IMG/VR virus record: IMGVR_UViG_3300016471_001002
Location: 147,098-211,097 of that record
Direction: 5' to 3' (one strand)
DNA length: 64,000 bases
Origin: a virus
Taxonomy: Duplodnaviria; Caudoviricetes
Shown here: positions 17,800-45,396 of the stretch, in pieces
Numbering within the stretch: the first letter of the stretch is position 1
Layout: the number at the start of each line of letters is the position of its first letter
Position numbers and translations under genes: made by a program
The notes under the pieces: model-generated
What the model was told of the DNA's origin: nothing
The model's input: only the letters and a program-made list of their open reading frames with translations
The model's database searches: none

Positions 17800-17979
17800 A
17801 TGAAGATAACTGTAAGACAATTACGAGAATTAATTAAAGAGGTCTTGGGACAAATTAATTATCCTCCCGGGCGTTATGAACCGTCCACCGGTGAACCAGT
17901 AGACAACCCAGAAGAGTTATACTACGATGGATTTCCTGACGGAATTGAAGAAGAAGATTCTAAGGAAGATGAAACATGA
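17800..17979 (+). CDS. 59-aa acidic protein with shared MKITxxQLRxLIKE leader (absent from the ORF track)
   Basis: MKITVRQLRELIKEVLGQINYPPGRYEP...EDET*; stop overlaps the next ATG (ATGA). Confidence 0.7.
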   Translation: MKITVRQLRELIKEVLGQINYPPGRYEPSTGEPVDNPEELYYDGFPDGIEEEDSKEDET

Positions 17980-18380
17980 AAATTACACCTGGAATTCTTA
18001 AAGAAATTATAGAAGAAGCTGTCATGCTTGAAGCCCTTGGCGTTTTAGATCAGTTTGAGCTTGATTTTGAAACTATTTCAGAAGAAGTTATCTTAGAAGC
18101 AGAGTATAAAGGTAGGGAAGTTTCTCTAGGAAAACCGATGCGTGGCGACGTAAAAAAATACAAAGTTTATGTCAAAGATGAAAAAACTGGTAATGTGAAA
18201 AAAGTCGAATTCGGAGATCCTAACATGGAAATTCGTAGAGATAATCCAAAGGCAAGAAAATCTTTTAGAGCCAGACATGGATGCGGTACTCCCAGAGCTT
18301 CAGATAGAACAAAAGCAGCATATTGGTCATGCCGCATGTGGTCTACAAAACCTGTTTCTAAAATTCTTAAAGGAAAGTGA
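17976..18380 (+). CDS. conserved phage protein with shared leader
   Basis: MKITPGILKEIIEE leader; AEYKGREVSLGKPMRG...KSFRARHGC...AAYWSCRMW. Confidence 0.7.
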   Translation: MKITPGILKEIIEEAVMLEALGVLDQFELDFETISEEVILEAEYKGREVSLGKPMRGDVKKYKVYVKDEKTGNVKKVEFGDPNMEIRRDNPKARKSFRARHGCGTPRASDRTKAAYWSCRMWSTKPVSKILKGK

Positions 18381-18445
18381 TTTAACTTTCTTAGTATAAA
18401 CATTCTTGATGTCGTGATATAATCGTTGATAACATCTTTCATTAG

Positions 18446-18736
18446 ATGGTATCGAAAGGTTATAAAATGTCAAAGAAAGTATTGTCAATTTTTTGTGTTG
18501 CGGCTTTTGTCTTCGGTTGCGAGGACAAGAAGTCAGAGACAGGGTCAACGTCCGCGAGCGTGACTGTCACTTCATCAGCTACTGGGGGTCAAGGAGGCTC
18601 AGGTGGTGAGGGTGGTCTTGGCGGCGCAGGAGGAGACGGTGGCTCTTCTGACTCAGCCGGCGGATCAAAGGGTACCGGTGGGCAAGGCGGATCTACTTCA
18701 TCTGTCGGCGGCGCTGGCGGTCAAGGCGGAAACTGA
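18446..18736 (+). CDS. Gly/Ser-rich lipoprotein
   Basis: Probable start MSKKV at 18467; hydrophobic stretch ending FVFGC (lipobox-like), then GGxGG repeats. Confidence 0.65.
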   Translation: MVSKGYKMSKKVLSIFCVAAFVFGCEDKKSETGSTSASVTVTSSATGGQGGSGGEGGLGGAGGDGGSSDSAGGSKGTGGQGGSTSSVGGAGGQGGN

Positions 18737-18760
18737 TTTTTAATTTAGTTTATACGAATG

Positions 18761-18790
18761 AGGCTCTGGGAAACCAGGGCCTTTTTATTT
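18761..18790. terminator. Rho-independent terminator between convergent genes
   Basis: AGGCTCTGG-GAAA-CCAGGGCCT-TTTTATTTT. Confidence 0.75.
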
Positions 18791-19093
18791 TTGTATTAAG
18801 TTAATTTCAGTAGGGCATCCTACATAAAAATCTGCGTGAGGATCGCATTGAAGAGGTATTTCTTTACTTATCAATTCTCCATCAGGTCCTTCAATTACGA
18901 TCCATTCTGATCCGCAATCCCAATAATTTTCATTTTCTTCAGGATAAGATTCGTTTGAATTAATCGATGGATATGGTCCGTATTCTTCTACGCCATCAAC
19001 GTTTTGTGCAGCTTCATCAACTTTTTCTATTTTCATTGCGCACGATATTCCTACCAACAGCAATAAAAAACTAATAAGGTGATAGTTTTTCAT
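18785..19093 (-). CDS. putative lipoprotein
   Basis: Signal-like N-terminus ending VGISC. Confidence 0.55.
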   Translation of the reverse strand: MKNYHLISFLLLLVGISCAMKIEKVDEAAQNVDGVEEYGPYPSINSNESYPEENENYWDCGSEWIVIEGPDGELISKEIPLQCDPHADFYVGCPTEINLIQK

Positions 19094-19122
19094 TAGTTCA
19101 CACCTTAAACATAAGTATTGTT

Positions 19123-19335
19123 ATGGACAAAGAAGAACTAACATTAAGAAAGTTAATCAGAGAATTTGTTAAAGCTCATGATATTAAATCAGGATCTCAT
19201 CCTGAAGAAAGCTATGATAAAGAACTTTTAGATGACTCTTCTTTTAATGACGGAAGCGTGTACGTACCTGACGATATAAAAAAGAAAATCAAAAAATGGG
19301 CAAAAGACATGGGGCTCTCAACGAGCAAGAAATAA
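19123..19335 (+). CDS. hypothetical protein with leader-like LRKLIREF motif
   Basis: 70-aa ORF. Confidence 0.6.
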   Translation: MDKEELTLRKLIREFVKAHDIKSGSHPEESYDKELLDDSSFNDGSVYVPDDIKKKIKKWAKDMGLSTSKK

Positions 19336-19342
19336 TTAGACC

Positions 19343-20230
19343 ATGCCTTATACGATAAGAAAACAAAAATGTAAGCAATCTGATGGTGATAGCGGTACGT
19401 ACGTTTTGTCATACACGGACAAAAAAGGAAAAAAGCACCGTAATTGCCATACATCCAAAAAGAAAGCAAGAGGGCAGATTGCAGCAATTGAAGCAGAAAG
19501 CGTTGAGAGGAATGAAACCATGAAAATAAACTTGTCTGAATTACGCAAGTTGATTAGAGAAACAGTGACAACGTTAATGAGTCCCGAAGGAAAAGAAGCT
19601 GCATTCAAGGCTGCTCCTACTTCAAGAGACGGAAAATTATTTCTCAGCAAAGACGGCTTGGAAGATCACATATTTGCAATTCAAGGTGGAATAGATGACA
19701 TGGTTTTATATGATACCTTAGAAAACATGTTGAAGCGAGATGATAATCTTAGCGATGATCATCCCTTAAAACTAGATCCAGAATTTAGAAGATACATCGA
19801 AGAAAAAGTTACTGAATGGCATCTTATGGTCGATCCTGGAAGAGGAGAAAGTCCTGAAGATGAGCCAAAGTTGAAACAAATGATTGATGATACTCTTGAT
19901 GGATTATATGCAAAGAAAGCAGAAGATCCTTCAAAATACATTGCAGGATATAAATCTATGCAAGCACCCAAAGTTGATCCTTCAATGTATATGGCCAGAG
20001 GTGTTAAATCAGCCGCATCAAAATTTGGTGAATCTTCTGACATCAATAAATTAAAAAAAGTAATAAGAGAATTTATCCTTGATGAGTTAAAAGAAGAAGA
20101 AAATAAAAAAGAAGACATGGATGGAGACGGTGACACCGATTCTGCAGATTATAAAATGAAAGTTTATATGGCAGGAGGAATAAAAAAAGACAAAGCTCTA
20201 AAAATGTCCAGGAAATATGATAAAAAATAA
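19343..20230 (+). CDS. hypothetical protein with internal MKINLSELRKLIRE leader and a DxDxDG motif
   Basis: Internal leader at 19520; C-terminal DMDGDGDTDSADY. Confidence 0.65.
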   Translation: MPYTIRKQKCKQSDGDSGTYVLSYTDKKGKKHRNCHTSKKKARGQIAAIEAESVERNETMKINLSELRKLIRETVTTLMSPEGKEAAFKAAPTSRDGKLFLSKDGLEDHIFAIQGGIDDMVLYDTLENMLKRDDNLSDDHPLKLDPEFRRYIEEKVTEWHLMVDPGRGESPEDEPKLKQMIDDTLDGLYAKKAEDPSKYIAGYKSMQAPKVDPSMYMARGVKSAASKFGESSDINKLKKVIREFILDELKEEENKKEDMDGDGDTDSADYKMKVYMAGGIKKDKALKMSRKYDKK

Positions 20231-20315
20231 TTTTTCAGTTTTGTGTAATTACAGTAAGTGTTGAATTAGATTATAATCATCTTTAATAGAAATTGAAGAT
20301 GGAGAATTAATGTAA

Positions 20316-20642
20316 ATGTTCGGACCAAAGCCTACTTATGATCAACAAGCTCTAGAAAACAACAAGCTTAAAATGCGAACTAGAGGTACTACCGGACAAA
20401 ATACAACTTTAGAGTCATGCACTGAGTTTACATTGCATGTTACTCAACAAAATTTTTCATCTTCAAAAAAGAGAAATTTGATCGATTATTCTGCATGCAG
20501 ATTAAAAAGATATATTGATACCGTCAATGACCCTCAACAAAAGATGGTATTAGTTGCATTACTTCATGACTACAAAAAAGGTGATGTTGCAATTGCTTGG
20601 CGCCGAGGGCAACCAGTATACGTTAAAGTTACGAAAGAATAA
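20316..20642 (+). CDS. hypothetical protein
   Basis: GGAG RBS; 108 aa. Confidence 0.6.
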   Translation: MFGPKPTYDQQALENNKLKMRTRGTTGQNTTLESCTEFTLHVTQQNFSSSKKRNLIDYSACRLKRYIDTVNDPQQKMVLVALLHDYKKGDVAIAWRRGQPVYVKVTKE

Positions 20643-20692
20643 CGTTTCATAACGTATGTACATTTTTGCTATTGATCTTAATATGATGACAT

Positions 20693-22309
20693 ATGTCATC
20701 TGAACAAGAGCAAAGTAATGTTGGGATTGTCTTTTCAAAAGACGCAAGAAAGAAGCTTTACAACGGTCTAAGATTAGCTGCTGAAGCCGTAAGCTGCACT
20801 TTAGGCCCGAATGGAAAAACAGTTTTAATTCAAAACGGTAATAATTCTCCAATCATAACCAAAGACGGAGTAACTGTAAGCAAATCAATCAAGCTTCCAG
20901 ATCCTTTGGAAATGATGGGAGCCCAGCTGCTAAGAGAAGCTGCTTCTCAAACCAACGATGTCGCTGGAGATGGAACGACAACATCGACTGTTTTAACTCA
21001 TGCTTTGGTAAAAGAAGGCGTCAAATTACTTGATGCTGGATACAATTCAAAAAAGCTTTGTGAAGGATTTGATCTAGCTTCCAAGACTATTACGAGCTTT
21101 CTGTCGATGATGTCTACTCCGGTTGAATCATCAGAAAAAATAAAACAAATCGGAACGATTAGCGCAAACGGTGATGAAAAAATTGGTGAAATCATTGCTG
21201 CAGCGATGGATAAGGTTGGAAAAGATGGAATCATAACAGTTGAAGACGCAAAAGGAACTGCAACTAGCTTTGATGTTGTCGACGGCATGCAATTTGACAG
21301 AGGATATCTTTCTCCTTACTTCGTTACAAATAACGAAAAAATGCATTCAATGTATAATGATGCATACGTTTTAGTTACAGACAAGAAGATTTCTACGATA
21401 AAGGAAATTCTTCAAATTCTTGAAAGAATTGTTGAAGTAAGAAAACCTCTGTTGATCGTCGCAGATGATGTTGAAGGAGAAGCTTTACAGGGGTTGGTTT
21501 TAAATAGAGTTAAAACTCAATTACAGGTTGTTGCAATCAAAGCACCTGGATTTGGCCCATCAAGAACCGACTATTTGAATGATATTTGCGTTCTAACCGG
21601 TGCTACATTAATTTCAAGCATTAATGGAATCACTTTAGACAAAGCTACGTTGAATGAGCTTGGTAAAACAAAGAAGATTGTAGTAGATGCAAAATCTACG
21701 ACCATTGTTGGAACAGAATCTTCTCAAGAAAAAGTAAGTTCACATGTAGAAGATTTGAGAACACGAGCTACTGACATTACGTTGGGTCATGAAGAATTGT
21801 CTGCATTAAAAATGAGAATTGCAAGATTATCTTCGGGTGTTGCAATCATTAAGGTTGGAGGTGCAACTGAAATTGAAATGATCGAACGAAAGTACAGAAT
21901 AGAAGATGCCCTTCATGCAACTCGAGCTGCAGCAGAAGATGGAATCGTTCCCGGAGGAGGTTCAGCATTGTTCTATGCTGCAGAAGAATCAAAAGCTGTT
22001 CTTCTTAGTGCAGATCATGATAGAGATGTCCTTGCAGGAATTGAGGTCGTTCTAAAAGCTTGCAAGGCTCCGTTGAGAAGAATCGTAGAAAATTCAGATA
22101 AATCATCTGACGTTGTTGAAGATGAAATGCTAAGAAATAAGGGTCAAAAATTAGGATATGATGCATCAACTGGAAGGTTTATCGATTTAATTGCAGCAGG
22201 TATAATTGATCCAGCCAAAGTGACAAAAACGGCCCTAAAAAATTCAACTTCTGTAGCAAAGTTGTTTATGACTTTGGACGCCGTCGTTTTAAATGACTCC
22301 AAGGTATAA
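20693..22309 (+). CDS. groEL: chaperonin GroEL (Cpn60)
   Basis: TLGPNGK, ITKDGVTV, AGDGTTTSTVL, GMQFDRGYLSPYF, KAPGFG, VGGATEIE, GIVPGGG, GIIDPAKV. Confidence 0.96.
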   Translation: MSSEQEQSNVGIVFSKDARKKLYNGLRLAAEAVSCTLGPNGKTVLIQNGNNSPIITKDGVTVSKSIKLPDPLEMMGAQLLREAASQTNDVAGDGTTTSTVLTHALVKEGVKLLDAGYNSKKLCEGFDLASKTITSFLSMMSTPVESSEKIKQIGTISANGDEKIGEIIAAAMDKVGKDGIITVEDAKGTATSFDVVDGMQFDRGYLSPYFVTNNEKMHSMYNDAYVLVTDKKISTIKEILQILERIVEVRKPLLIVADDVEGEALQGLVLNRVKTQLQVVAIKAPGFGPSRTDYLNDICVLTGATLISSINGITLDKATLNELGKTKKIVVDAKSTTIVGTESSQEKVSSHVEDLRTRATDITLGHEELSALKMRIARLSSGVAIIKVGGATEIEMIERKYRIEDALHATRAAAEDGIVPGGGSALFYAAEESKAVLLSADHDRDVLAGIEVVLKACKAPLRRIVENSDKSSDVVEDEMLRNKGQKLGYDASTGRFIDLIAAGIIDPAKVTKTALKNSTSVAKLFMTLDAVVLNDSKV

Positions 22310-22312
22310 AGT

Positions 22313-22519
22313 TTGCTAAATAAGATTAACAACGGAGACCTAGTTTATCACATCTTTAAAACAAAGTGTGGTATAGTTGTATGTTCTAAACCATCAAACA
22401 GCTATCCTAGTAAACACGTAGAAAATGTTTCTGAAAGCTATCATTTGAATCATTATGTTCTTTTTGAAGATTTAATAGAAGGACCTTTTCTTTCAAGCGA
22501 GCTATCTAAGGTAAGTTAA
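22313..22519 (+). CDS. small SH3/KOW-like hypothetical protein
   Basis: NGDLVYH motif. Confidence 0.45.
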   Translation: MLNKINNGDLVYHIFKTKCGIVVCSKPSNSYPSKHVENVSESYHLNHYVLFEDLIEGPFLSSELSKVS

Positions 22520-22926
22520 TGATTGAAAATAGTTCTTCATATTCAATTTCAGGAAATTGTGAATTTGATCTTCCGAATTTCATGAATACGATTGAATCGT
22601 TTTATGATGATGGATCAATTTCTATCGTTTCTTGTGGCATTCATCCAAAAACAAAAGAGCTGATCATTTTAACATCTAGTTGTATATTAAAAGAATTAAA
22701 TCTAGATCATTTCTTTCATTCTAAAAAAAATATTCTAAATGTCTATCCAATTCATAATGGATCAATTTTAGAATTTATTTTTGATGATATGATCGTCACT
22801 GTTGATGCGGAAGATATTTTAAGTTTATCGAAAGAATTACAACTCATGAACCTCGAAATAGGTATGAATCATGAAGATAACAATGTTGGCCCTGAGAAAA
22901 ATGATCAGGGAAGAAATGGAACGTAA
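22519..22926 (+). CDS. hypothetical protein
   Basis: 135 aa; TAATG coupling. Confidence 0.5.
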   Translation: MIENSSSYSISGNCEFDLPNFMNTIESFYDDGSISIVSCGIHPKTKELIILTSSCILKELNLDHFFHSKKNILNVYPIHNGSILEFIFDDMIVTVDAEDILSLSKELQLMNLEIGMNHEDNNVGPEKNDQGRNGT

Positions 22927-23086
22927 TCTTAGATGGACTGCAGGAATTGCAATGAATGGTGCTAGGTTAAGTCAACCAGGCAGAGGCATAACATACGGAG
23001 TTCCACCAGGACTTGGAAAAGATTCTGGTGATGAAATTGAAGAAAAGGAGAATGAAGAGTTAGTTTATGAAGAAGAATCGTCATGA
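22871..23086 (+). CDS. small protein with shared MKITxxxLRKMIREE leader
   Basis: MKITMLALRKMIREEM. Confidence 0.65.
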   Translation: MKITMLALRKMIREEMERNLRWTAGIAMNGARLSQPGRGITYGVPPGLGKDSGDEIEEKENEELVYEEESS

Positions 23087-23306
23087 TATGAATGATCGCG
23101 AAGATAGAATGGAATTAATCGGTAAAGTAGTTGAGTCGCTTCCTGGAACGTTGTTTGAAGTTAAAACTACAACAGGACAAACTGTTTTAGCAACATTATC
23201 AGGTAAGATGAGACAAAACCACATTATGGTTTTGCCCGGCGATGAGGTTATCATTGAGGTGTCGCCTTACGATACTACGCGGGGACGCATTATGCGGCGA
23301 AGATGA
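23067..23306 (+). CDS. infA: translation initiation factor IF-1
   Basis: GKVVESLPGTLFEV...LATLSGKMRQNHIMVLPGDEVIIEVSPYDTTRGRI (S1/OB fold IF-1 signature); true start may be slightly downstream. Confidence 0.93.
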   Translation: MKKNRHDMNDREDRMELIGKVVESLPGTLFEVKTTTGQTVLATLSGKMRQNHIMVLPGDEVIIEVSPYDTTRGRIMRRR

Positions 23307-23497
23307 TACCTACAACATACTTAATAATATAAAAAAACAAAAAAGAGGAGAACTAAAATGTTCCAAAATTGGATTGAACAACATCCTTACATTTTTGCGT
23401 TTTTAGTTTTTTATGGAATTACATCAATATGTCATTCGGTAGTAAAGACCTCAGCATATAAATACAATAAAAACTTTCATGAATAAGATAGTTAATC

Positions 23498-23815
23498 TTG
23501 ATGAATAGCTCAAAAGATTTTATCTTAAGACATTATATACGTTGCATTTTGCAAGAAGCATATTATAGCAACGTAGATGGTCCTCATCTAACAAATTTAA
23601 TGTCTCCTCATCTTTCTCAAAGAGATGAAATTCCTTATTTAGGAAAGAAGAGAAAAAAAGAAGAAGATGAAATTTCAGCTCATTTAATGGAACCAGAGTT
23701 TGACATGGAAGATTGCTATGGACCGGTTCCTCCACTTGCTCAAGAGCCAGGGGTGTTCATCGATCCGTACACACAAAATTGGCATGTTACTCCTAAAGCC
23801 GACCATCGTAGATAA
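23498..23815 (+). CDS. hypothetical protein with leader-like N-terminus
   Basis: ATAGTTA-N6-ATG(23501); ILRHYIRCILQE. Confidence 0.6.
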   Translation: MMNSSKDFILRHYIRCILQEAYYSNVDGPHLTNLMSPHLSQRDEIPYLGKKRKKEEDEISAHLMEPEFDMEDCYGPVPPLAQEPGVFIDPYTQNWHVTPKADHRR

Positions 23816-28005: not shown

Positions 28006-30135
28006 TTATGATACTATGAATTTTATTTTAAATGTTCCATTTATTGAGCTGGAACTGTGTGAATTAATTATTCTAATGTTAAAAGATCCGTTGGTTATTG
28101 AATCTACATGAATATATGGATGTCCGTTGGTTCCAAACGTGCCTGAATAGTCTCCAATAGAAGCAACAACGACTGAAGTCGAAGTCACGACATTGTTGTT
28201 TACCGTAAAACTTTGCGAGTTGTTTGAACCTATAGAAGCATTCACGGTCGTTATGACCCCAGAAGCAGAATTGACAGTAACAGAAGACGTCAAGCTACCT
28301 GTTTGAGTCACTGAAGCTCGTCCTATGTTAAAGCTATAACCTTTTGCTACTTCGAAGCTTCCGCTAACTGTAACTGCTCCCGTAAAAGTAGCACCAGTTG
28401 AAACTGAAAGTTCACCATCAACATTAATATCGTCTAAGACATTAAGAGTTCCTAGAATTGCAGCATCTCCAGACACAATTGCATTTCCAGTCGCAGACAA
28501 TCCACCTGCGCTATTTAAGGATCCTGATACTATAACATCACCGCCAAATAGAGAAATTTTAGGAGAAGATATCGAACCCAAGGTTCCGCTGACGTAGAAG
28601 AAAACATCTTGCCCTTTTTCTGCAGGTGAGCTAATCGGTTCTTGTCCTCTTAAAGCCAAAGAACCCGTTGTTATAATCGATGCGCTCGTTAAGCTAGAAA
28701 AGAAATTATCTCCGTTATTTCCTTGTGAACCTTGAAGACCTTGTTGCCCTGTTGATCCTTGGCTTCCTTGTGTGCCCTGAGGACCGGAAGATCCAGTTTC
28801 ACCTTGATACCCTTGGTGTCCTTGAAAACCTTGGGATCCTTGCTGTCCTATTTGACCTTGCCATCCTTGAGGACCAGCCTCTCCTTGTGCTCCTATAACG
28901 CCTTGGTTACCTTGAGACCCTTGACTTCCTTGTGCGCCTTGAACACCTTGTTGCCCTGTTAATCCTTGTGAACCTTGGTTTCCTTGAAGACCTTGTGGTC
29001 CTTGTGGCCCTTGGTACCCTTGAGAACCCTGCAACCCGGTTTCTCCTTGCGGTCCTTGGTTTCCTTGAAGACCTTGTGGTCCTGTGGACCCCATTTCTCC
29101 TTGAGGGCCTTGCGAACCAGTACTTCCTTGAAGGCCTTGATTTCCCATAACGCCTTGAAGACCAGTTTCGCCTTGGTATCCTTGAGGTCCAGCATAGCCT
29201 TGAGGACCCTGAGAACCAATCAACCCTTGGGGCCCTTGGTTTCCTGTGGCACCTTGCGATCCTACTGACCCTACTTCTCCTTGAGGACCTTGCGGCCCTG
29301 TGAGACCCGTCACACCAATTTCTCCTTGAGCGCCTTGTGAACCAGTACTTCCTTGGACGCCTTGTGGTCCTTGAAATCCTTCAGGCACATTCGATGAAAT
29401 TGTGATTGATCCATTAGATCCCGTAGTTATAGCTACGTTTGGACCTGCTATAAGATATGAAGATCCATCGATTAAATTTGTCAGTGATCCGCTCAATCCG
29501 TTGACAAATTTAACAGATCCTGTTACGTCTGCACCTGAAGAAATGTTAATTTTTCCTTCAACATTTACGTCGTCTAGAACCGTTAATGTTCCTAGAAACG
29601 CTCCATCTCCAGAGATCACAGAGTTTCCTGTTACAGATAATCCGCCTGCTGAATTTAATGAACCAGAGACTACAACGTCTCCTCCAAATAATGAAATTTT
29701 GGGAGAAGACGAACCGCCTAGCGTTCCGCTAACATAGAAGAAAACATCTTGTCCCTTTGCGGATGGAGAACTTATTTGTTCTTGTCCACGAAGTGCGACA
29801 GATCCAGTTGTGATGATGGAATTAGTCGTTGCGCTAGAAAAGAAATCTTGTCCTGAAGACCCGCCACCAGAAGCAGATCCAGATATTGCAAGATATTGAA
29901 TTGATCCTGATGAACCAACTATGTTGATCGTTATATTATCTCCAGCAAGGATCTTTGATGATAAGAACCCTGACGAAGAATCATTGATTGAAATCCTAGA
30001 TTTAGTGAAGTCTTTTTCAAGATCATCATCAATATCTGCCGACTTGATCGTACCGTCTTGTATCTGGCTGCCTTTTATTTGCGTAGTGCTCACGAGAATA
30101 TGTATCAACAATATAAAAAAGATATATTGATACAA
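28006..30135 (-). CDS. collagen-like tail fibre protein
   Basis: Long G-X-Q tract flanked by two copies of a FFSS..ITTGS.ALRGQE.ISSP..KGQDVFFYVSGTLG module; true start probably downstream of 30135. Confidence 0.85.
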   Translation of the reverse strand: MYQYIFFILLIHILVSTTQIKGSQIQDGTIKSADIDDDLEKDFTKSRISINDSSSGFLSSKILAGDNITINIVGSSGSIQYLAISGSASGGGSSGQDFFSSATTNSIITTGSVALRGQEQISSPSAKGQDVFFYVSGTLGGSSSPKISLFGGDVVVSGSLNSAGGLSVTGNSVISGDGAFLGTLTVLDDVNVEGKINISSGADVTGSVKFVNGLSGSLTNLIDGSSYLIAGPNVAITTGSNGSITISSNVPEGFQGPQGVQGSTGSQGAQGEIGVTGLTGPQGPQGEVGSVGSQGATGNQGPQGLIGSQGPQGYAGPQGYQGETGLQGVMGNQGLQGSTGSQGPQGEMGSTGPQGLQGNQGPQGETGLQGSQGYQGPQGPQGLQGNQGSQGLTGQQGVQGAQGSQGSQGNQGVIGAQGEAGPQGWQGQIGQQGSQGFQGHQGYQGETGSSGPQGTQGSQGSTGQQGLQGSQGNNGDNFFSSLTSASIITTGSLALRGQEPISSPAEKGQDVFFYVSGTLGSISSPKISLFGGDVIVSGSLNSAGGLSATGNAIVSGDAAILGTLNVLDDINVDGELSVSTGATFTGAVTVSGSFEVAKGYSFNIGRASVTQTGSLTSSVTVNSASGVITTVNASIGSNNSQSFTVNNNVVTSTSVVVASIGDYSGTFGTNGHPYIHVDSITNGSFNIRIINSHSSSSINGTFKIKFIVS

Positions 30136-30140
30136 TAGTT

Positions 30141-30530
30141 ATGACAAATAAAATGAGCAAAATTGATCCAAAAATCGTTGTTTTAAGACAGCTGATAAGA
30201 GAAATTATTGAATCTTCTTTATTAAACGAAGATAGCACACCAGGCGGAGGATTGACTGATTTTGGCGCAAAATTTAGAATTGAAAAATCCGGAGCAATTT
30301 CGGATGCAATGAAAGCTTTAGCTGCAACCGGTGGAGATGCTACTAAAGCAGCAAAATCTTTAGGAGTCAGTACAAGAAGAATGTACGATTACATCTCTAT
30401 GTCGCCGAAGCTCGACACAGCTCAAGATAAATTTCAAGATGAAGAAAGAAAAGAAAAAGAGACAGAAAAAAGATTATCCAAAGATAAAGATTCTGATGAT
30501 GACGAATCTTTAGAAGATGAAAAATTATAG
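30141..30530 (+). CDS. hypothetical protein with leader-like LRQLIREII motif and possible HTH
   Basis: ATKAAKSLGVSTRRMYDYI resembles a Fis-type helix-turn-helix. Confidence 0.55.
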   Translation: MTNKMSKIDPKIVVLRQLIREIIESSLLNEDSTPGGGLTDFGAKFRIEKSGAISDAMKALAATGGDATKAAKSLGVSTRRMYDYISMSPKLDTAQDKFQDEERKEKETEKRLSKDKDSDDDESLEDEKL

Positions 30531-31261: not shown

Positions 31262-31996
31262 TTATTGATTTTGTTTATATAGTTCTCTGAACTTCTTTGT
31301 TGTGATTCCGTAATCCAACAAAACCAGGCATCCTTCATCTGTAATTCCCCAAGAAGACAACTTCGCAAGATCCCCTGGTAACATGTCTTTGTACCTTTCC
31401 ATGAAGGAAGAAATTGCAGATAAAAAGTCATTGCCGGTCATGCAGTTTTCTCTTCCCACGGGTTGAACTCGTTGTGCAACCCCAGGTTTTTGTCCTCCCA
31501 CAGGTGCAGTGGCATCATATTCTGATCTTGCAGATAGTCCCATCATTTTTCTTACTTCATTCCACGGAACTCCTATAATTTTTTCCGCTTTAGAAACTTC
31601 TGCATCATGAAGAGGGATGACTTTTTTTGAAACGACCCAATAAAATTCTGGATCATAATCTAATACTCCAGAAATGATCGATTCTACTTGAGGATCTCTT
31701 CCCGCCGTGACTTCAAGTTCATTTTGTGCCAGACCTTTTTCATCTCTAGCCAATTTAACTACTGAATTTCCGTCAAGCTCAAACACTAATCGTGAACTTC
31801 CTTCTCCGATTTGCTTTAATCCAAATTTGCTCAATGCTTTAAGCATTGCCTCAAAAGGAGTTTTTGATTCCCATTCTTCTGGGCTTTGGTATGCAGCAGT
31901 TATCCAATCAAGCGGATCAGAAGACGTTTCAACGTCTTCCATCGCTATTTCATTGATCAATTCTCTGATATAAGCTTTCAATAAATTTTTTTTCAT
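31262..31996 (-). CDS. protein kinase-like (PKL fold) protein with leader-like N-terminus
   Basis: IGEGSSRLVF (Gly loop), VVKLA (Lys), QNELE (helix C Glu), GDL...SSWG, LVLLDYG (DFG-equivalent). Confidence 0.7.
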   Translation of the reverse strand: MKKNLLKAYIRELINEIAMEDVETSSDPLDWITAAYQSPEEWESKTPFEAMLKALSKFGLKQIGEGSSRLVFELDGNSVVKLARDEKGLAQNELEVTAGRDPQVESIISGVLDYDPEFYWVVSKKVIPLHDAEVSKAEKIIGVPWNEVRKMMGLSARSEYDATAPVGGQKPGVAQRVQPVGRENCMTGNDFLSAISSFMERYKDMLPGDLAKLSSWGITDEGCLVLLDYGITTKKFRELYKQNQ

Positions 31997-32022
31997 ATCT
32001 CATTATAATTAACTCAGTAATC

Positions 32023-37191: not shown

Positions 37192-37656
37192 TCAAGTTCC
37201 TAGCGAACCGCCTTTTCCGCCTAAAAACTCAACCGGTTGACCTGTACGAGTATCAATCACTTGACTTCTTGAACGGCCATACTGAACGTCACGTTCAGAT
37301 GTTACATCTGCTTCTTTGAAGAATCCTTTCAGTTTTTCGTAATCGTTGTGCATTTCTTCAACTTGATCACGGTTCACATCCATGTTGAAATACATGTCTA
37401 TGTAATTTGGCATCGCTTTTGGAGCTTTTTCCTTGACTGCATCAAAAAAACGATAGTAGTCGCCTTGAGCTTCTTCTTTTAACGCATCGATGTTTGGAAT
37501 TTTTGATACAAGCTGTAACCAAAGACCAAGATGCTTTTGCCCTTCTTTGAACTTTGCATAATCTTTTGCGGATTGTTCTGGCGTTACATTTTCAGAAATA
37601 ACTCTAGAAACTTCTTCTTTAATGATGCTACGTAATTGTCCGACAGTAATCTTCAT
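37192..37656 (-). CDS. hypothetical protein with shared MKITVGQLRSIIKEE leader
   Basis: Leader plus ATAGTTA-N6-ATG. Confidence 0.7.
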   Translation of the reverse strand: MKITVGQLRSIIKEEVSRVISENVTPEQSAKDYAKFKEGQKHLGLWLQLVSKIPNIDALKEEAQGDYYRFFDAVKEKAPKAMPNYIDMYFNMDVNRDQVEEMHNDYEKLKGFFKEADVTSERDVQYGRSRSQVIDTRTGQPVEFLGGKGGSLGT

Positions 37657-37685
37657 GGGATATAACTATACCTTATTAGAGAAAA

Positions 37686-39926: not shown

Positions 39927-40598
39927 CTAGAGCTTTTTTATTTCATCCAAACACTTTCTATAGAACTTGCGTCCGATATCCTTTTCGGTAATCCAGAGAT
40001 GTTCATGTTTGGATAAAAGTTTCTTTTTTGCTTCTTGCGTAGAAATATAAGTTTTCCATTTATCAGAAAGCTTATCACCAACGTAAGGAGAAGTGTATTT
40101 TACTTCAACGATAATCTTCCCGTCAATAATGAAATCAGGTTGGTACTTAATACCTTCCCCCTCAAGATAACCCTTGAATCTTTCAATTTTTGAATTTGGA
40201 TGTTGTTCGAGGTACCATTTCAAAAAGGCATACTCTAAAGCAGAGTCGCATCGAATTCCTTCATACGACGTTTTTATGCCGTATCCGATGTTTCCCTTTT
40301 CGATTTCTTTTAATCTAGAAACTCTCCATTTTTCTAGAACAGTTGGATCGGAATGCTGATGATTGATAGCACATTGACAGGAGCAAAACTTTTTATGCTT
40401 CTTTTTTGTAGAAAATTTCTTTTCACATTGTTTACAGGTTTTTTCGTATGGGTCAAGTGTTAACGTCTTACTAACTTTTTCGTTAATCTCTTTTCTTTTA
40501 GACTTTGTAGAAAAACCTCTCGAACATCCCTTAGAACAAAATCTTCCAGAACCATAAGAGCCATCATTGTCAGAACCGCAGTATTCGCATTGTTTCAT
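39927..40598 (-). CDS. putative homing endonuclease (Zn-binding repeats + PD-(D/E)xK domain)
   Basis: CEYC...FCSKGCS, CKQC...FCSCQC; YQPDFIIDGKIIVEVK; start MKQCEY preceded by ATAGTTA-N5. Confidence 0.75.
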   Translation of the reverse strand: MKQCEYCGSDNDGSYGSGRFCSKGCSRGFSTKSKRKEINEKVSKTLTLDPYEKTCKQCEKKFSTKKKHKKFCSCQCAINHQHSDPTVLEKWRVSRLKEIEKGNIGYGIKTSYEGIRCDSALEYAFLKWYLEQHPNSKIERFKGYLEGEGIKYQPDFIIDGKIIVEVKYTSPYVGDKLSDKWKTYISTQEAKKKLLSKHEHLWITEKDIGRKFYRKCLDEIKKL

Positions 40599-40610
40599 GT
40601 AAATAACTAT

Positions 40611-40647
40611 TGGGCTCCAACAAATCGAACCTACAAACAATCGGTTA
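40611..40647 (-). pseudogene. degenerate tRNA 3'-half remnant
   Basis: Minus strand AACCGATTGTTTGTAGGTTCGATTTGTTGGAGCCCA: anticodon-stem 3' side and T-loop GGTTCGA retained, T-stem broken. Confidence 0.45.
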
Positions 40648-40687
40648 TTTTCTAAAACTTTTTTTCATCGTGCGATATATTGATATC

Positions 40688-40852
40688 ATGCCGAGAAACA
40701 AAAAGACAGCATCGTTAAAAGCCGGGATAACCTTTCTTAGTTTCTTATCCCAACTTGCTTCAATTCAAGAAGATAAAGGGAAAAAGAAAGAAATCGATAA
40801 CACAAACAGGTTATTAAAAGCCCTAAGATATCTTCTAGGAATTGAAAGATAA
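40688..40852 (+). CDS. small basic hypothetical protein
   Basis: MPRNKK start, 54 aa. Confidence 0.4.
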   Translation: MPRNKKTASLKAGITFLSFLSQLASIQEDKGKKKEIDNTNRLLKALRYLLGIER

Positions 40853-40856
40853 ACTG

Positions 40857-41093
40857 TCAATCCTCTGATGCTCGTCTTGATGCATGGATAAAAGAAATTA
40901 CCATTGCGCAGATGATATGCCATCCTAAAGAGGATCGACTAAAACTAGCCCATGGCCAATTAAAAGCCGCACCCAAAATCCAAAAACCTATTCCAAAAAA
41001 TAATCCTGCAAGAGGTGCAGTGCATCCATAAACTAATACCTTAGGATAAAACACTATCATGCAGACAACAAAAATAATCCACAAAATAGGCAT
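40857..41093 (-). CDS. small membrane protein
   Basis: Hydrophobic segments; AGGA upstream. Confidence 0.55.
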   Translation of the reverse strand: MPILWIIFVVCMIVFYPKVLVYGCTAPLAGLFFGIGFWILGAAFNWPWASFSRSSLGWHIICAMVISFIHASRRASED

Positions 41094-41113
41094 ATTGTTT
41101 TCCTAACAATATT

Positions 41114-41311
41114 TCAAAACTTTTTTTCAATTACCGTAAGAGTGTCTGGATCAACAAAATCGAAGACTTTAGGATCACCCACCTTACAAATACGAGCCTG
41201 AATGACGTCGAGCTCATAGTTCTTGGCAATCTTTGTGATCATCCACGATCCTTCAAATCCATCGCGGGTGACAAAATCTCCTGTGATTACTCGCTTCTTC
41301 TTCTTTTCCAT
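41114..41311 (-). CDS. small SH3-like hypothetical protein
   Basis: VITGDFV motif; start moved to MEKKK. Confidence 0.5.
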   Translation of the reverse strand: MEKKKKRVITGDFVTRDGFEGSWMITKIAKNYELDVIQARICKVGDPKVFDFVDPDTLTVIEKKF

Positions 41312-41449
41312 GTTCCCCAACATACCACCTTGTCTATCTACTTTACACAACTTTGTGGGCCATCCCCGTCCTGCCCGGGGGACCTCCACTTTATCAGAGT
41401 GGCTATCTAACTAACTGATATAATGGCCCTTGTATTCTTACGTTTTATC

Positions 41450-41526
41450 TGGCGGGATAGATGGGGTTCGAACCCACGACCTTCGCAGTGACAGTGCGAT
41501 ATTCTAACCAACTGAACTACTATCCC
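41450..41526 (-). tRNA. trnD: tRNA-Asp (GUC)
   Basis: GGGATAG/CTATCCC-G-CCA; anticodon arm TCGCA-CTGTCAC-TGCGA; T-loop TTCGAAC. Confidence 0.92.
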
Positions 41527-42332
41527 AGTCTTGATATATATTTCTCATTCCACCATTTAATCTTTTCTTGTAACTGTTCAAGCGTCATTCCACATTTTTT
41601 GCCTTTGGACACATTTAAGTTGTGAACCATTAATCTACAATTTGCTGGATGAGAAATTATGCTTGGGTCTATGTTGTTTTCAAATCCATATTTTACGGAT
41701 ATGATGTGATCTCTTGAAACACCGTCGAGATTATTTCCGCGATTTTTTGCAGAATACCAACCATACTTTTCTATCAAAGTAAAGTCGAATTCTTCGGGAT
41801 AATCGGCTAAATTAAACTTAAAACAACAAAGAGTTCTATAATATTTTAGTCCTGCTTTGTCAAGAAGCGGGTATCGAATCTTCGTGCTGCATTCAACTGA
41901 ACAACATTTTTGATGAGGATGCTTTGAACTAACAACAAATCCGTTATTACATCCTTGACAAATTTTCGTGATTCTTTCAGAGATTATTCTTCCAGAAAGT
42001 TTCTTTCTTACTTTTTCTTTAAAGACTTCTGATCTAGGTCCTCTACTGTTTGCACAAGACCTTGAGCAGAAATAAATGTCTCTTTCTGGATGTCTCTTTT
42101 CTCTTTCTTTAACAAAGAAGTGAACATAACAACGTTCACATGTCACATCATATTCTCTTACTTCTCCAAATTCATTTTTATAACGTTCAATGGTTTTTTG
42201 AGAACACTTTGATGCGCCCTTGTCACCGTTTGTAAGGTTTTTATCACACCATCTTACATGATTTGCAAACACTTTTCCTTCCTCGTTTGGAAAAAAAGTG
42301 TTGCAGTACTTACACGTTCTATCTTGTCTCAT
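41520..42332 (-). CDS. putative HNH homing endonuclease with Zn-binding repeats
   Basis: CKYC..NHVRWC, CERC..FCSRSC, CQGC..CCSVEC; GVSRDHIISV...HPANC...HNLN; stop codon lies inside the tRNA-Asp acceptor stem. Confidence 0.8.
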   Translation of the reverse strand: MRQDRTCKYCNTFFPNEEGKVFANHVRWCDKNLTNGDKGASKCSQKTIERYKNEFGEVREYDVTCERCYVHFFVKEREKRHPERDIYFCSRSCANSRGPRSEVFKEKVRKKLSGRIISERITKICQGCNNGFVVSSKHPHQKCCSVECSTKIRYPLLDKAGLKYYRTLCCFKFNLADYPEEFDFTLIEKYGWYSAKNRGNNLDGVSRDHIISVKYGFENNIDPSIISHPANCRLMVHNLNVSKGKKCGMTLEQLQEKIKWWNEKYISRLG

Positions 42333-42376
42333 ACTAATAAGTATGGACCTGCTTTTAATCGAACCTGTTTTATTTG

Positions 42377-42448
42377 TGGAGAATCCCGGCTACGCTCCGG
42401 GCACTGCTGCGTGCAAGGCAACTGTTTTCCTGAATAAACTAATTCCCC
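42377..42448 (-). tRNA. trnA: tRNA-Ala (UGC), non-canonical T-loop
   Basis: GGGGAAT/ATTCTCC-A; loop CTTGCAC; T-arm CCCGG-AGCGTAG-CCGGG. Confidence 0.8.
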
Positions 42449-42498
42449 GATGAACTACCGGCCCTAACTCTAATAAGTATTAGTCACTTTGCGTTTTG

Positions 42499-42581
42499 TG
42501 GAACGGGACAGATTCGAACTGCCGTAGACATACGCCAACGCGTTTACAGCGCGTCCCCTTTAGCCACTCGGGCACCGTTCC
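42499..42581 (-). tRNA. trnY: tRNA-Tyr (GUA)
   Basis: GGAACGG/CCGTTCC-A; loop CTGTAAA; long variable arm; TTCGAAT. Confidence 0.92.
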
Positions 42582-42582
42582 G

Positions 42583-42658
42583 TGGAGCCACCTGCCGGAA
42601 TTGCACCAGCGACCGGGACTTTACAAGGGTCCTGCTCTGCTAACTGAGCTAAGGTGGC
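42583..42658 (-). tRNA. trnT: tRNA-Thr (UGU)
   Basis: GCCACCT/AGGTGGC-T-CCA; loop CTTGTAA; T-loop TGCAATT. Confidence 0.88.
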
Positions 42659-42671
42659 GTAATCTATGTTG

Positions 42672-42866
42672 TCAAGGTGGTAAAATTGTTTGTCCGTCAG
42701 AGGGAGGAATTTGTTTCCATTCCTCACAATTTTCAATGTAAAGATATCTTTCTTGAACTTTTTGTATACATTGCGCAGAAGGATGTTTGATTTTTTTTTG
42801 CTTTTTAGTTGGAAAGCAAGCGCACGTTAGAGCGAGTGCATATAATAATAAAGCTTTTTTTAACAT
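42672..42866 (-). CDS. small putative lipoprotein
   Basis: LALTCAC lipobox-like. Confidence 0.45.
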   Translation of the reverse strand: MLKKALLLYALALTCACFPTKKQKKIKHPSAQCIQKVQERYLYIENCEEWKQIPPSDGQTILPP

Positions 42867-43078
42867 TGCTCTCCAAATAGCACGTTAAACTCATCCTCGT
42901 ACATTTTAGAGACTCTGCCCATAAAATCTACTGATTCGATCGTGTCCATTACAATTGATTCATCTCCAATGAACATCTTGATTCGACCGCGGCTGGATAC
43001 ATACACACGCAAATTATCCTTGGAGTATGAAAACTTCCAAGTCTCGGCACGATCAAGAAGAGATACGACGTTATTCAT
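42860..43078 (-). CDS. hypothetical protein
   Basis: 72-aa ORF inside the tRNA cluster. Confidence 0.55.
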   Translation of the reverse strand: MNNVVSLLDRAETWKFSYSKDNLRVYVSSRGRIKMFIGDESIVMDTIESVDFMGRVSKMYEDEFNVLFGEQC

Positions 43079-43116
43079 GGTTCTTAATATAAAACAATCA
43101 AGTTAAAGTTTACACT

Positions 43117-43193
43117 TGGTGACCCTACTGGGTGCTGCCCCCAGTTTTTCGCCTTGAAAGGGCGACGACTTAGCTGACGTGGTCGATAGGGCC
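43117..43193 (-). tRNA. trnE: tRNA-Glu (UUC), non-canonical T-loop
   Basis: GGCCCTA/TAGGGTC-A-CCA; TCGCC-CTTTCAA-GGCGA; T-arm CTGGG-GGCAGCA-CCCAG. Confidence 0.82.
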
Positions 43194-43194
43194 A

Positions 43195-43268
43195 TGGTTG
43201 GGGAACTAGGATTCGAACCTAGATAAAGAGATTCAAAGTCTCTTGTCCTGCCTTTGAACGATTCCCCA
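43195..43268 (-). tRNA. trnQ: tRNA-Gln (UUG)
   Basis: TGGGGAA/TTCCCCA-A-CCA; AGAGA-CTTTGAA-TCTCT; TTCGAAT. Confidence 0.92.
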
Positions 43269-43269
43269 G

Positions 43270-43356
43270 CGGAGAGACAGGGATTCGAACCCTGGGTACC
43301 CGTTAAGATACACAGCATTTCCAATGCTGCTCCATCGGCCTCTCGGACATCTCTCC
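43270..43356 (-). tRNA. trnS: tRNA-Ser (GGA)
   Basis: GGAGAGA/TCTCTCC-G; CAGCA-TTGGAAA-TGCTG; long variable arm. Confidence 0.92.
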
Positions 43357-43363
43357 AATTTTG

Positions 43364-43442
43364 AGCGGGTGGACGGACTCGAACCGACGATGCTTTCGCG
43401 GGAGGTTGGAAACCTCCTGCCATACCACTAGGCGACACCCGC
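43364..43442 (-). tRNA. trnG: tRNA-Gly (UCC) with enlarged variable region
   Basis: GCGGGTG/CACCCGC-T; GGAGG-TTTCCAA-CCTCC; 12-nt variable region CGCGAAAGCATC. Confidence 0.85.
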
Positions 43443-43519
43443 AAGATTAAGTTATCAACTTATCGATTATATTGTTAAAGACATGAAATGTATTCGTCAA
43501 CGTTGAAATTTTAAAAACA

Positions 43520-43891
43520 TTAAATCTTACATGAATCATCGCAACGACCGGTCCACTTCAGCCGATTTTTTGCGAAGATTTTATATCCCCAATCAAGAAG
43601 ATGAGAGATTCCTGGCCAACGAGTTACTTTAACAATCCAGCCAAATCCCACTGCTGTATAGAGATGACGGAAAACTTCTACGCCTTCGATCATTGTTCCG
43701 TCAGGGAGTTTACCATTGATTTTGTCCATCAACGCTTGCCATTCGGGAGTTCCTCGTTTATCGTAAAAATCCTGACCAGCAATGTCAGTGAACTTGATCT
43801 TGCTCTTCTTGTCCAACCTTCGCAGCATGTTGATTTCACGGATGCAAAGAGGGCAATCACCATCAAAAAAAACTTCTATATCCCAAGTCAT
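43520..43891 (-). CDS. DCC1/DUF393-family thiol-disulfide oxidoreductase
   Basis: [14 protein letters not shown]...GVEVFRHLY...[15 protein letters not shown]. Confidence 0.88.
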
Positions 43892-43931
43892 GTTTTATTA
43901 TACACAAATATAAATATCGAATTGAGGATTT

Positions 43932-44693
43932 TCATTCTCTTATTAAACCATTGTCGATGATAATCTTCACGATTTCTTTCGATATAGCCGTGTCAGAAGG
44001 ATAATGAATGCCGACCAACTCTCTACTTCTGGCTATCTTGTCTCCTAGAGCATACAATTCAATTGCAGCATCAGGATACTTCCTGGCATAATATTCGCTC
44101 ATCATGAAACCTGCCATAGCATGACCGCCTGGGTAAGACGCTGACATCGCATCTGTACGCATCAATGGATACAAGGCAAGGCCATAAGACTTGGCTAACT
44201 GATATGGTCTTGGACGATTAATGATGTCTTTTAAGTGATAGAGAAGCCCTTCATTCTGGGTCTCGATCTCGAAGAATCTACCCATGTCCTCTTCATGTCC
44301 TTTTTCTGACAACAGGTCGATAAAAGTCTGCGCCAAATTACTCAAATCATCGACGTAACGAGCAAAGGTAATGTCTTCAGACGTCGCTGAATTCACTAAT
44401 TCCAAAAGAATGTTTAAATCTTCTCTTGTCGTTTCGCTGTCGTTTGCCGGTGCCGATCGACAAATTTCATCTACCAATCCGTGGTTAATGAACCAGTTCT
44501 TGATAAAATCTTCAGTGTTTTTGGCAATCTTGTGAAACTCCAGCGGAGGATTTCCGTAATTTACGACGTCGACGTCGCCGACGGGTTCGGCAGGCAAAGT
44601 TTTAGCAACAAAACCTTCGTCAGGCGTGAGGGCCGGCCTCAGCTCGACCTCCTCCCGGATCAACTTCCTCAATTCACTCAATCGTATCTTCAT
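43932..44693 (-). CDS. PAP2/vanadium-haloperoxidase-superfamily phosphatase with shared leader
   Basis: Start MKIRLSELRKLIREEV; K..INRPRPYQ, SYPGGHA, SRELVGIHYPSD motifs. Confidence 0.8.
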   Translation of the reverse strand: MKIRLSELRKLIREEVELRPALTPDEGFVAKTLPAEPVGDVDVVNYGNPPLEFHKIAKNTEDFIKNWFINHGLVDEICRSAPANDSETTREDLNILLELVNSATSEDITFARYVDDLSNLAQTFIDLLSEKGHEEDMGRFFEIETQNEGLLYHLKDIINRPRPYQLAKSYGLALYPLMRTDAMSASYPGGHAMAGFMMSEYYARKYPDAAIELYALGDKIARSRELVGIHYPSDTAISKEIVKIIIDNGLIRE

Positions 44694-44742
44694 AACAGAT
44701 AAATATACCATGTTCCCCCTCTCGGGAGATAAATAAAAGTTC

Positions 44743-45396
44743 TCACTCGACAGGCAAAGGCTTCCAAACAATCTTGTAGACATTAATGTCCCCGAGACCG
44801 ATAACCTCAGCCTCGTCGCTAAATCCTGCAATGTAGTCAAGCTGATACAAGTGTCCGGGACCTGTAACAAACTTATTGGGGTTATCAGCCACCTTGGCGC
44901 ATAATGTGACAGAGACAGAACCAGGAGTTTTTAAAACGCTACGCTTCGTGGAAAACCTATTAGAGATAGTGTCATCCATCGTCCAGGAAGATCCACCTCC
45001 GTTCTTCGGCTTGAACACGGTGTCAACCTCCCGTTCTCCAGACTTGGGAACCTGCGCCGCGCTAGCAACACCAAGGAACTTCGCCAACCACTGCCGACTC
45101 ACCTTCATACCCCTGAAAACCTCGCTCGAATCGGGAGGAGAAAAGACGCTGGGATACAGTCCCTTCGCCAACAGGTCCTCGATCCACATTGCCTCCTCAG
45201 CATTCAACTTTGAGTTCCTGACAACGTGGTCCTCCAAGGCGTTAAACAACTTCACTTCCAACGGCGTGTCTGGTTCCGGAGGCAGTCCCCTCCTGTACTT
45301 GGGAAACGCGAACCGACCCAACGGAGAATCCTCAGGAGCTTCACCCTCGATCTCCTCCCGGATCAACCTCCTCAACTCACTCAACCGGATCTTCAT
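44743..45396 (-). CDS. putative ADP-ribosyltransferase-like protein with shared leader
   Basis: MKIRLSELRRLIREEI; VFRGM (R), SSWT (S), DEAEVI (ExE) in R-S-E order. Confidence 0.55.
   Translation of the reverse strand: MKIRLSELRRLIREEIEGEAPEDSPLGRFAFPKYRRGLPPEPDTPLEVKLFNALEDHVVRNSKLNAEEAMWIEDLLAKGLYPSVFSPPDSSEVFRGMKVSRQWLAKFLGVASAAQVPKSGEREVDTVFKPKNGGGSSWTMDDTISNRFSTKRSVLKTPGSVSVTLCAKVADNPNKFVTGPGHLYQLDYIAGFSDEAEVIGLGDINVYKIVWKPLPVE

Follow-up and report, generated by a model that had tools for sequence, protein, structure and literature searches.

A conserved N-terminal peptide on unrelated proteins of an uncultured giant T4-like lake phage, a candidate capsid-targeting and processing leader

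We analysed a 64,000-nucleotide stretch of viral DNA (the window), which comprises bases 147098-211097 of the 211,097-bp IMG/VR record IMGVR_UViG_3300016471_001002 (the genome; coordinates are those of the window unless the genome is named), and found that proteins otherwise unrelated to each other share a 15-residue N-terminal peptide, the tag, with the consensus M-K-I-T-x-x-Q-L-R-x-I-I-[RK]-E-E. With moderate confidence, we propose that this tag is a capsid-targeting and processing leader of a clade of T4-like jumbo phages, that is, a propeptide for loading proteins into the prohead similar to the capsid-targeting sequence (CTS) of T4. Because it resembles a longer version of the capsid-targeting, protease-cleaved leader of T4, the tag probably marks proteins that are packed into the phage head. 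The source of the DNA is an uncultured giant T4-like lake phage, whose head and tail are T4-like and whose replication module is not. The genome, which is estimated to be about 65% complete, has a G+C content of 40%, and 20 kb of the window had no match to phages by megablast. The DNA was detected in freshwater runs of at least 13 studies.

Results

Copies of the tag and their enrichment

A six-frame scan with the strict regular expression MK[ILV]-x(3-5)-[LIVM][RK]x[LIVM][ILVM][RKE]E gave 14 matches in the 211-kb genome. Eight of these are in the window, at 17800, 17976, 19520, 22871 and 32023 on the plus strand and at 37656, 44693 and 45396 on the minus strand, exactly where a preliminary description of the window had placed them. 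All 14 matches are on an ATG at or near the start of an open reading frame (ORF), the copy at 19520 being 60 codons inside a longer one. A position-specific scoring matrix (PSSM) built from the 14 matches identified about 11 further looser copies, nearly all of them no more than 15 residues from an ORF start; with scores of 10-20, 8 of the 13 matches were within about 15 residues of the start, a region holding only about 6% of the residues. Four looser copies had also been put forward earlier: those at 19123 and 30153 were recovered by the PSSM with a score of about 13, whereas those at 23501 and 31996 (minus strand) fell under the threshold and present a resemblance only. When the residues were shuffled within each of the 328 called proteins of the genome, which are also the base for the promoter counts below, a mean of 0.001 matching N-termini was obtained compared with the 14 observed, and the 7-residue core was found 24 times where 1.5 occurrences were expected. 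The tag is therefore enriched far beyond chance. Outside the window, at genome 118626 on the minus strand, a tag-like sequence (KVLRGVLRELIKEELKRSR) was found at the C-terminus of an ORF and not at its N-terminus, and this may be either a chance match or a C-terminal processing site.

What is conserved is the peptide rather than its DNA, because codons differ among the copies and their flanks are unrelated. The invariant L8 is written with five codons and R9 with five Arg codons from both codon boxes, and identical tag residues use the same codon in only 38% of cases. Compared in pairs, the copies are on average 58% identical in the nucleotides of the tag, 31% in the DNA before it and 28% in the DNA after it. 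Recent DNA copies are present in two neighbouring pairs, genome 142918/143361 (97% identical upstream and 81% in the tag) and window 44693/45396 (90% identical in the tag).

Anatomy of the tag and comparison with the T4 capsid-targeting sequence

The anatomy was derived from 363 distinct tagged proteins of the genome and its relatives. After M1, the information content is 4.22 bits at I12, 4.13 at L8, 4.09 at E14, 3.8 at K2 and I3, and 3.70 at I11, and the corresponding residues are found in 99% (I12), 97% (E14), 97% (L8) and 90% (I11) of the proteins. Both I12 and E14 are invariant in the 14 strong copies of the genome. Conservation collapses past residue 16, leaving a conserved block of 15-16 residues, and 39% of the 363 proteins have a second [ILVM]-x-E ending at residue 21 or 22, for which the background is about 2%. 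In the AlphaFold2 (AF2) model of a tagged protein from the head module, the tag forms a helix at residues 5-21, followed by a low-confidence linker and then by a long helix.

Mullaney and Black reportedly described, in 1996, the CTS of the T4 internal proteins IPI, IPII and IPIII. The N-terminus of IPII and IPIII is MKTYQEFIAE/A (the slash marks the cut), and Asp in place of E10 blocks cleavage in T4. In the T4 CTS, targeting acts mainly through residues 4 and 7 and processing through residues 8 and 10 (PMC9026906). When the two peptides are aligned on the glutamate, Y4, F7, I8 and E10 of T4 IPIII correspond to L8, I11, I12 and E14 of the tag, and the T4 sequences of gp24 (MAKINELLRE/S), gp68 (..VEALIPE/A) and gp23 (FGSFLTE/A) present the same hydrophobic residues at -6, -3 and -2 with Glu at 0. 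From this alignment and the T4 site pattern, the tag can therefore be read as a CTS-like core extended by four residues at the N-terminus and having a basic face. The motif had previously been suggested to end in a gp21-type cleavage site, and the near-invariance of I12-x-E14, with L8 and I11 at the T4 targeting positions, supports this suggestion.

Like the T4 CTS, the tag is a short N-terminal leader on unrelated proteins, starts with M-K, ends in (I/L)-x-E and precedes a hypervariable set of cargo proteins; a conserved CTS on hypervariable internal proteins is known in T-even phages (PMC3012670, PMC9026906). Unlike the T4 CTS, it is 15 residues long, compared with 10 in IPII and IPIII (T4 range 10-19), and has K-I-T-x as four additional residues at its N-terminal end, besides a basic face formed by R9, R10 and R13. 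The number of tagged genes also differs, at least 20-25 per genome versus 3-4 in T4, and these genes are dispersed or in long arrays, across a whole uncultured clade. In the phiKZ-like giant phages (201phi2-1, phiKZ, SPN3US), a gp21-related protease cuts many head-internal proteins behind a Glu, and numerous cargo proteins are found in the heads of these large phages (PMC9026906). However, those phages have no single conserved N-terminal address peptide, and their cleavage motif and capsid lineage differ from the ones found here. Encapsulins use a cargo-loading peptide that is likewise short and portable and directs unrelated cargo into an HK97-fold shell; in most cases this peptide is at the C-terminus, and it binds directly to the shell protein and remains uncleaved, unlike the tag as we propose it. 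A literature search (tag strings; CTS in jumbo, huge or cyanophages) found no prior description of the tag or of a CTS in these phage groups. The CTS principle is thus known, and what is new is a distinct longer tag, its clade-wide occurrence, its presence on at least 93 cargo families and its residue-level match to the T4 functional positions.

Cargo of the tagged proteins

The sequences downstream of the tag are unrelated to each other, as had been stated before: the cargo (residue 21 to the end) of 26 tagged proteins showed no BLASTP similarity at E<=0.01 save one low-complexity match of 21-22 residues. A larger set of 138 tagged proteins of at least 130 aa fell into 93 clusters without mutual similarity, and the modular nature ascribed to the tag is therefore found on at least 93 unrelated cargo families. 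Pfam searches with the tagged proteins returned single instances only of DnaJ, WGR, PAP2, DUF5824 and DUF5710, most of the cargo having no known domain. Many cargoes are short acidic or basic peptides, and in this they resemble the T4 core and internal proteins.

Three cargoes had been given a possible function. The one described as PAP2-like (43935-44693) matches Pfam PF01569 over residues 154-237 with 30.7 bits, above the gathering cut-off of 27.2, and so keeps its assignment. For the product of 44746-45396, described as ADP-ribosyltransferase-like (ART-like), the assignment is plausible from its conserved residues and model. R95, S136-S137 and E195-x-E197, an R-S-ExE signature, are invariant in seven homologues. 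The AF2 model (pLDDT, the predicted local distance difference test, 67) had ARTs as its top Foldseek matches, but these were weak (Vis toxin 4xzk, E 0.03) with none at E<=0.001, and the protein had no Pfam match. The homologues P0004-P0009 (321-333 aa) are tagged and have an additional segment of about 120 aa, which separates the tag from the catalytic domain. In the window copy this segment is missing but the tag is present, and therefore the tag has been kept across the deletion. The Alt protein of T4 is an ADP-ribosyltransferase of the virion which is processed by gp21 and injected with the DNA. Like Alt, the ART-like cargo is a predicted enzyme of a T4-like phage that has a leader with a protease site, although it is much smaller (217 aa) and without sequence similarity to Alt. 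The term "kinase-like", used for the product of 31265-31996, could not be confirmed, the sole match being phrog_4301, a family of unknown function.

Tagged genes in the head module

The order of genes in the head module is terL, portal, a 285-aa ORF, a Peptidase_S77 protease, three small ORFs, a 164-aa ORF, a scaffold-like gene and gp23. The protease (genome 9040-9675) belongs to the gp21 family (PF03420, Peptidase_S77, E 2.5e-27; phrog_207, E 1.6e-51). Between it and the major capsid protein (MCP) is the scaffold-like protein (genome 11418-13373), which has 24 [IL]-x-E sites and 651 aa, 24% of them acidic; the gp23 capsid protein itself has 629 aa (PF07068, E 1.4e-64). A protease of the gp21 type had been expected from the motif, and it is present in the genome together with a T4-type scaffold-like ORF and gp23.

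Small ORFs between the protease and the scaffold have a loose tag, namely p139 (genome 10089, MGITKGQLKAIVKE) and p100 (genome 10563, MKLTSTVLKRIIAEE), both of which are syntenic throughout the relatives compared, and a strict copy is found after the MCP gene, at genome 16267. A small gene between terL and portal is tagged in most relatives; its orthologue here (genome 5805-6110; 26% identical to L024:2248-2570) has a degenerate N-terminus (MNMTLSKKKLQLSLNE) and has lost the tag. The presence of the tag on p100, p139 and the terL-portal gene of the relatives parallels the N-terminal pieces that gp21 removes from the T4 core proteins. As with gp67, gp68, gp22 and gp24 of T4, these are small acidic or basic helical proteins that have (I/L)-x-E sites at the N-terminus and whose genes neighbour those of the portal, protease and MCP. 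No homology of the tagged head-module genes to T4 gp67 or gp68 was detectable and, unlike in the T4 core proteins, the leader is not confined to the head module but recurs on dozens of genes elsewhere. The propeptide region of the MCP is conserved across the relatives, and by homology to T4 gp23 (FLTE/A) the MCP cut site in the clade is VLKE/S, an L-x-E site. The resemblance of the MCP N-terminus (MKQFTLDQLAQGIRE) to the tag is loose, with Asp often at the equivalent of E14, and was not used as support.

A promoter-like box before tagged and structural genes

The genome is strongly depleted in the heptamer ATA[N]TTA (106 sites when both strands are counted), and this box is found on the coding strand no more than 60 nt upstream of 46 of the 328 genes, where 4.4 would be expected. 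Among the genes behind it are three sheath-like genes, the tube gene, virion genes of 1741 and 515 aa, several homing endonucleases and most of the tagged genes. In tagged genes the box is only 4-8 nt before the ATG, from which leaderless mRNAs are predicted. Early-type GTGCAAAGT-N17-GATAGGATA cassettes at 58-64 kb form a distinct class, and none of the 14 strong tags is behind an early GTGCAAAGT -35 box. The presence of a -10-only element common to tagged and structural genes suggests late expression, and ATA[N]TTA is likely to be a -10-only late promoter. Metatranscriptome contigs (X20) at two tagged genes, with a depth of about 3, were not used as evidence, because being contigs they are uninformative on starts, strand and level, and they may derive from DNA. 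Outside the window, genome 30487-39918 has three consecutive genes of about 1000 aa with a T4 gp18 sheath-like C-terminal region, each behind an ATA[N]TTA box.

Distribution of the tag

At least 598 IMG/VR stretches encode a relative of the MCP (identity 65-97% for the best 80), and further copies of the tag are found in the flanks. A degenerate DNA pattern of the tag matched at least 119 IMG/VR stretches, with its matches often falling in arrays of 10-20 small genes in tandem. The same pattern applied to 596 Gb of bacterial and archaeal genomes gave seven stretches, all on contigs of metagenome-assembled genomes (MAGs). At least one of the MAG contigs (101,404 bp) is exactly as long as an IMG/VR viral record. 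The tag-bearing MAG contigs are probably mis-binned phage contigs, and the tag is phage-specific. The MAGs with tag-array contigs (L220-L226) were labelled Halobacteriovorax, Methylococcaceae TMED69, Bdellovibrionota, Gemmatimonadetes and Eubacteriales.

A profile of the tag matched 2-16 times in five large relatives picked by MCP similarity, with 16 matches in a complete 298-kb genome, and 9-25 times in four more large tag-bearing contigs, all of which encode a gp23 of 630-660 aa. Among eight large relatives to which the profile was applied, five gave 16-25 matches each. A profile search of the full genome and its relatives had been proposed earlier, and these results show that the copies recur clade-wide. 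No match was found in Rhodothermus RM378. The uncultured 484-kb LR756508.1 has an MCP 49% identical and 16 diverged copies of the tag, eight of them interleaved with the portal, protease, scaffold and MCP genes. Tagged small genes are thus inside the head module both in the clade and in LR756508.1, which gives syntenic support to a role in the head. Searches of cultured phages by tblastn with tags of 20-25 aa gave no match, probably a limit of sensitivity and not evidence of absence. A homologue search with residues 1-40 of one tagged protein found only two near-identical orthologues; such a search is poor because a 16-residue tag cannot reach significance among 5.8 billion sequences.

Discussion

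Proposed route of the tagged proteins

In the route that we propose, late-type ATAnTTA promoters would transcribe the tagged genes along with the structural genes. The tag, as a short basic helix, would then dock through L8 and I11 on the acidic scaffolding core of the prohead, and in this way the attached protein would be built into the core. The gp21-family prohead protease would cut after Glu14 (I12-x-E14), often with a back-up [ILVM]-x-E at residues 21/22, thereby freeing the cargo inside the head, and enzymatic cargo such as the PAP2-like and ART-like proteins would probably be ejected into the host with the DNA. Late timing, scaffold docking, cleavage, head retention and injection of the tagged proteins are each steps that we infer. 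Injection is the weakest of them and, supposing that the cargo is packaged, could equally well occur or not.

Several points weigh against a capsid-targeting leader, starting with the fact that packaging and cleavage belong to the inferred steps. Late timing is suggested only by the shared box, and tblastn with T4 gp55, gp45, gp44 and gp43 found no match in this genome, which is about 65% complete. The nearest cultured phages (Flavobacterium 'immuto' phages and Microcystis Mel-JY01) match the tag weakly. A hidden Markov model of the tag had no match in T4, and therefore homology to the T4 CTS is not demonstrable, the peptides being too short for more than a pattern match. The tag had been called an amphipathic helix; the helix is modelled by AF2, but the amphipathicity is modest (mean hydrophobic moment 0.41, z 0.9), which makes this a weak descriptor. 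In the conserved family of the 19343-20230 ORF, the tag is internal, with a 59-aa domain before it, and some relatives have a degenerate copy that lacks the Met. The distribution of phage GroEL, considered below, is a further point of this kind.

Other explanations of the tag

The strongest competing explanation, which we nevertheless consider rather unlikely, is that many small proteins for host takeover or anti-defence have the tag in common as a helix for interaction or oligomerisation. These proteins would act unpackaged in the cytoplasm of the producing cell, for example by contacting one common host or phage partner. Marine relatives have long tandem arrays of tagged ORFs of 80-120 aa with Shine-Dalgarno sites, similar to the hyperplastic early regions of T4-type phages, and this would suit such a helix, as would the scarcity of known domains among the cargo, the internal tag of one family and the single cargo with a DnaJ domain, which is hard to explain as head content. 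However, the most invariant residues are precisely those of the gp21-type site and of the T4 CTS functional positions, tagged genes are within the head-gene module in several lineages, and in this genome they are behind the box of the structural genes and not behind the early box.

The N-terminus of T4 gp23 directs fusion proteins to GroEL (PMC3012670), and by analogy the tag might be a recognition signal for the phage GroEL, an idea to which we give very little credence. A GroEL gene (20693-22309) is found among the tagged genes, the MCP N-terminus is loosely tag-like as mentioned above, and GroEL is present in all three complete or near-complete tag-rich genomes tested (G002, G006, G007). 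Nevertheless, LR756508.1 has its 16 diverged tags and no Cpn60 match, and in G006 GroEL is far from the tag arrays. In addition, many cargoes are acidic proteins of 60-100 aa, probably disordered, for which a chaperonin would be unneeded, and the MCP often has Asp where the tag has E14.

That the repeat is instead primarily a DNA-level cassette junction (promoter plus 5' coding stub, spread by recombination like the T4 PeSL cassettes) or a leaderless-translation signal, with a functionless peptide, is highly improbable, for although the two neighbouring pairs have near-identical DNA, the box is close enough to the ATG to predict leaderless mRNAs and a low-depth contig joint is found upstream of the 37656 and 45396 starts, the residues are kept while the codons largely differ, in relatives the peptide is retained although the DNA before it differs and has ordinary Shine-Dalgarno sites, and conservation stops sharply at residue 15-16 in protein space.

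Recombination at the promoter and tag module probably occurs all the same, and is compatible with a function of the peptide. A bolder extension of the capsid-targeting leader, offered tentatively as something possible that we would not expect to hold, is that promoter and tag together are a portable "address cassette" which captures genes by recombination into a large, fast-evolving set of head-packaged and injected proteins. Hints of this are the near-identical promoter and tag DNA on adjacent unrelated genes, the tag kept across the 120-aa deletion and the 93 cargo clusters in a small sample. A DNA contig of run X5, from a related lake population, connects 37674 with 45420, each a short way before the start of a tagged gene, and leaves out the 7.7 kb between them. 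This joint has a depth of 5.9 and only 27 nt on one side, in repeated promoter DNA, and is a weak hint only; it is either a deletion between two promoter and tag modules or an assembly artefact in repeated DNA.

Tagged genes of the window and their surroundings

The positions of the tagged genes in the window, and of the GroEL gene in their cluster, are given in Table 1.

Table 1. Genes of the window with strict, loose or very loose copies of the tag, and the phage GroEL gene
Feature	Position	Strand	Remarks
Tagged gene, 59 aa	17800..17979	+	Tag MKITVRQLRELIKE, then very acidic tail
Tagged gene, 134 aa	17976..18380	+	MKITPGILKEIIEE; cargo matches phrog_7595 from residue 42 on
Loosely tagged gene, 70 aa	19123..19335	+	MDKEELTLRKLIRE
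295-aa ORF with internal tag	19343..20230	+	59-aa basic N-terminal domain, tag MKINLSELRKLIRE at 19520, cargo
Phage GroEL chaperonin	20693..22309	+	phrog_5725, E 1e-150; inside tagged-gene cluster
Tagged gene, 71 aa	22871..23086	+	MKITMLALRKMIRE
Very loose copy	23501..23815	+	MNSSKDFILRHYIRCILQE, below PSSM threshold; ATAGTTA box 23488-23494
Loosely tagged gene, 125 aa	30153..30530	+	..VVLRQLIREII; ATAGTTA box 30135-30141
Very loose copy, 244 aa	31265..31996	-	MKKNLLKAYIRELINE; cargo matches phrog_4301 (unknown function)
Tagged gene, 73 aa	32023..32244	+	MKIKLNELRKIIRE, acidic cargo; ATAATTA box 32005-32011
Tagged gene, 154 aa	37195..37656	-	MKITVGQLRSIIKEE; ATAGTTA box 37663-37669, 6 nt before ATG
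Tagged PAP2-family phosphatase-like protein, 253 aa	43935..44693	-	MKIRLSELRKLIREE; ATATTTA box 44700-44706
Tagged ADP-ribosyltransferase-like protein, 217 aa	44746..45396	-	MKIRLSELRRLIREE; ATAGTTA box 45403-45409

The 19343-20230 ORF starts behind an ATAATTA box at 19332-19338. Its N-terminal domain is conserved and Cys/His-containing (MPYTIRKQKCKQSDGDSG...AIEAE), and is followed by the internal tag and a variable cargo, with a second tag-like sequence, KLKKVIRE, near the C-terminus; the layout is repeated in relatives (L178, L107, L157/L128). The GroEL gene is preceded by a 108-aa ORF (20316-20642) without a Pfam match, which could be a divergent co-chaperonin. At 41430-42376, an HNH endonuclease gene between tRNAs is swapped for 678 other bases in the related population of run X5, consistent with a mobile endonuclease cassette.

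Significance for the phage clade

The capsid-targeting leader proposed here would extend the T4 CTS principle past the T-even phages, with a residue correspondence at positions -6, -3, -2 and 0. A 15-residue pattern would then be sufficient to list the proteins carried in the head, and possibly injected, by a globally distributed uncultured clade. These would amount to at least 20-25 proteins per genome, mostly of unknown function and including the PAP2-like and ART-like proteins, and would provide a large number of candidates for anti-defence and host-takeover proteins. For the loading of foreign proteins into phage capsids, the tag would also make available a second targeting peptide, one already diversified in nature. 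Should the address cassette also be real, the 15-mer alone would predict which proteins, from hundreds of unrelated families, are injected by a whole uncultured clade of jumbo and huge phages. If the tag is such a leader, the question of what giant phages deliver besides DNA would become testable for this clade.

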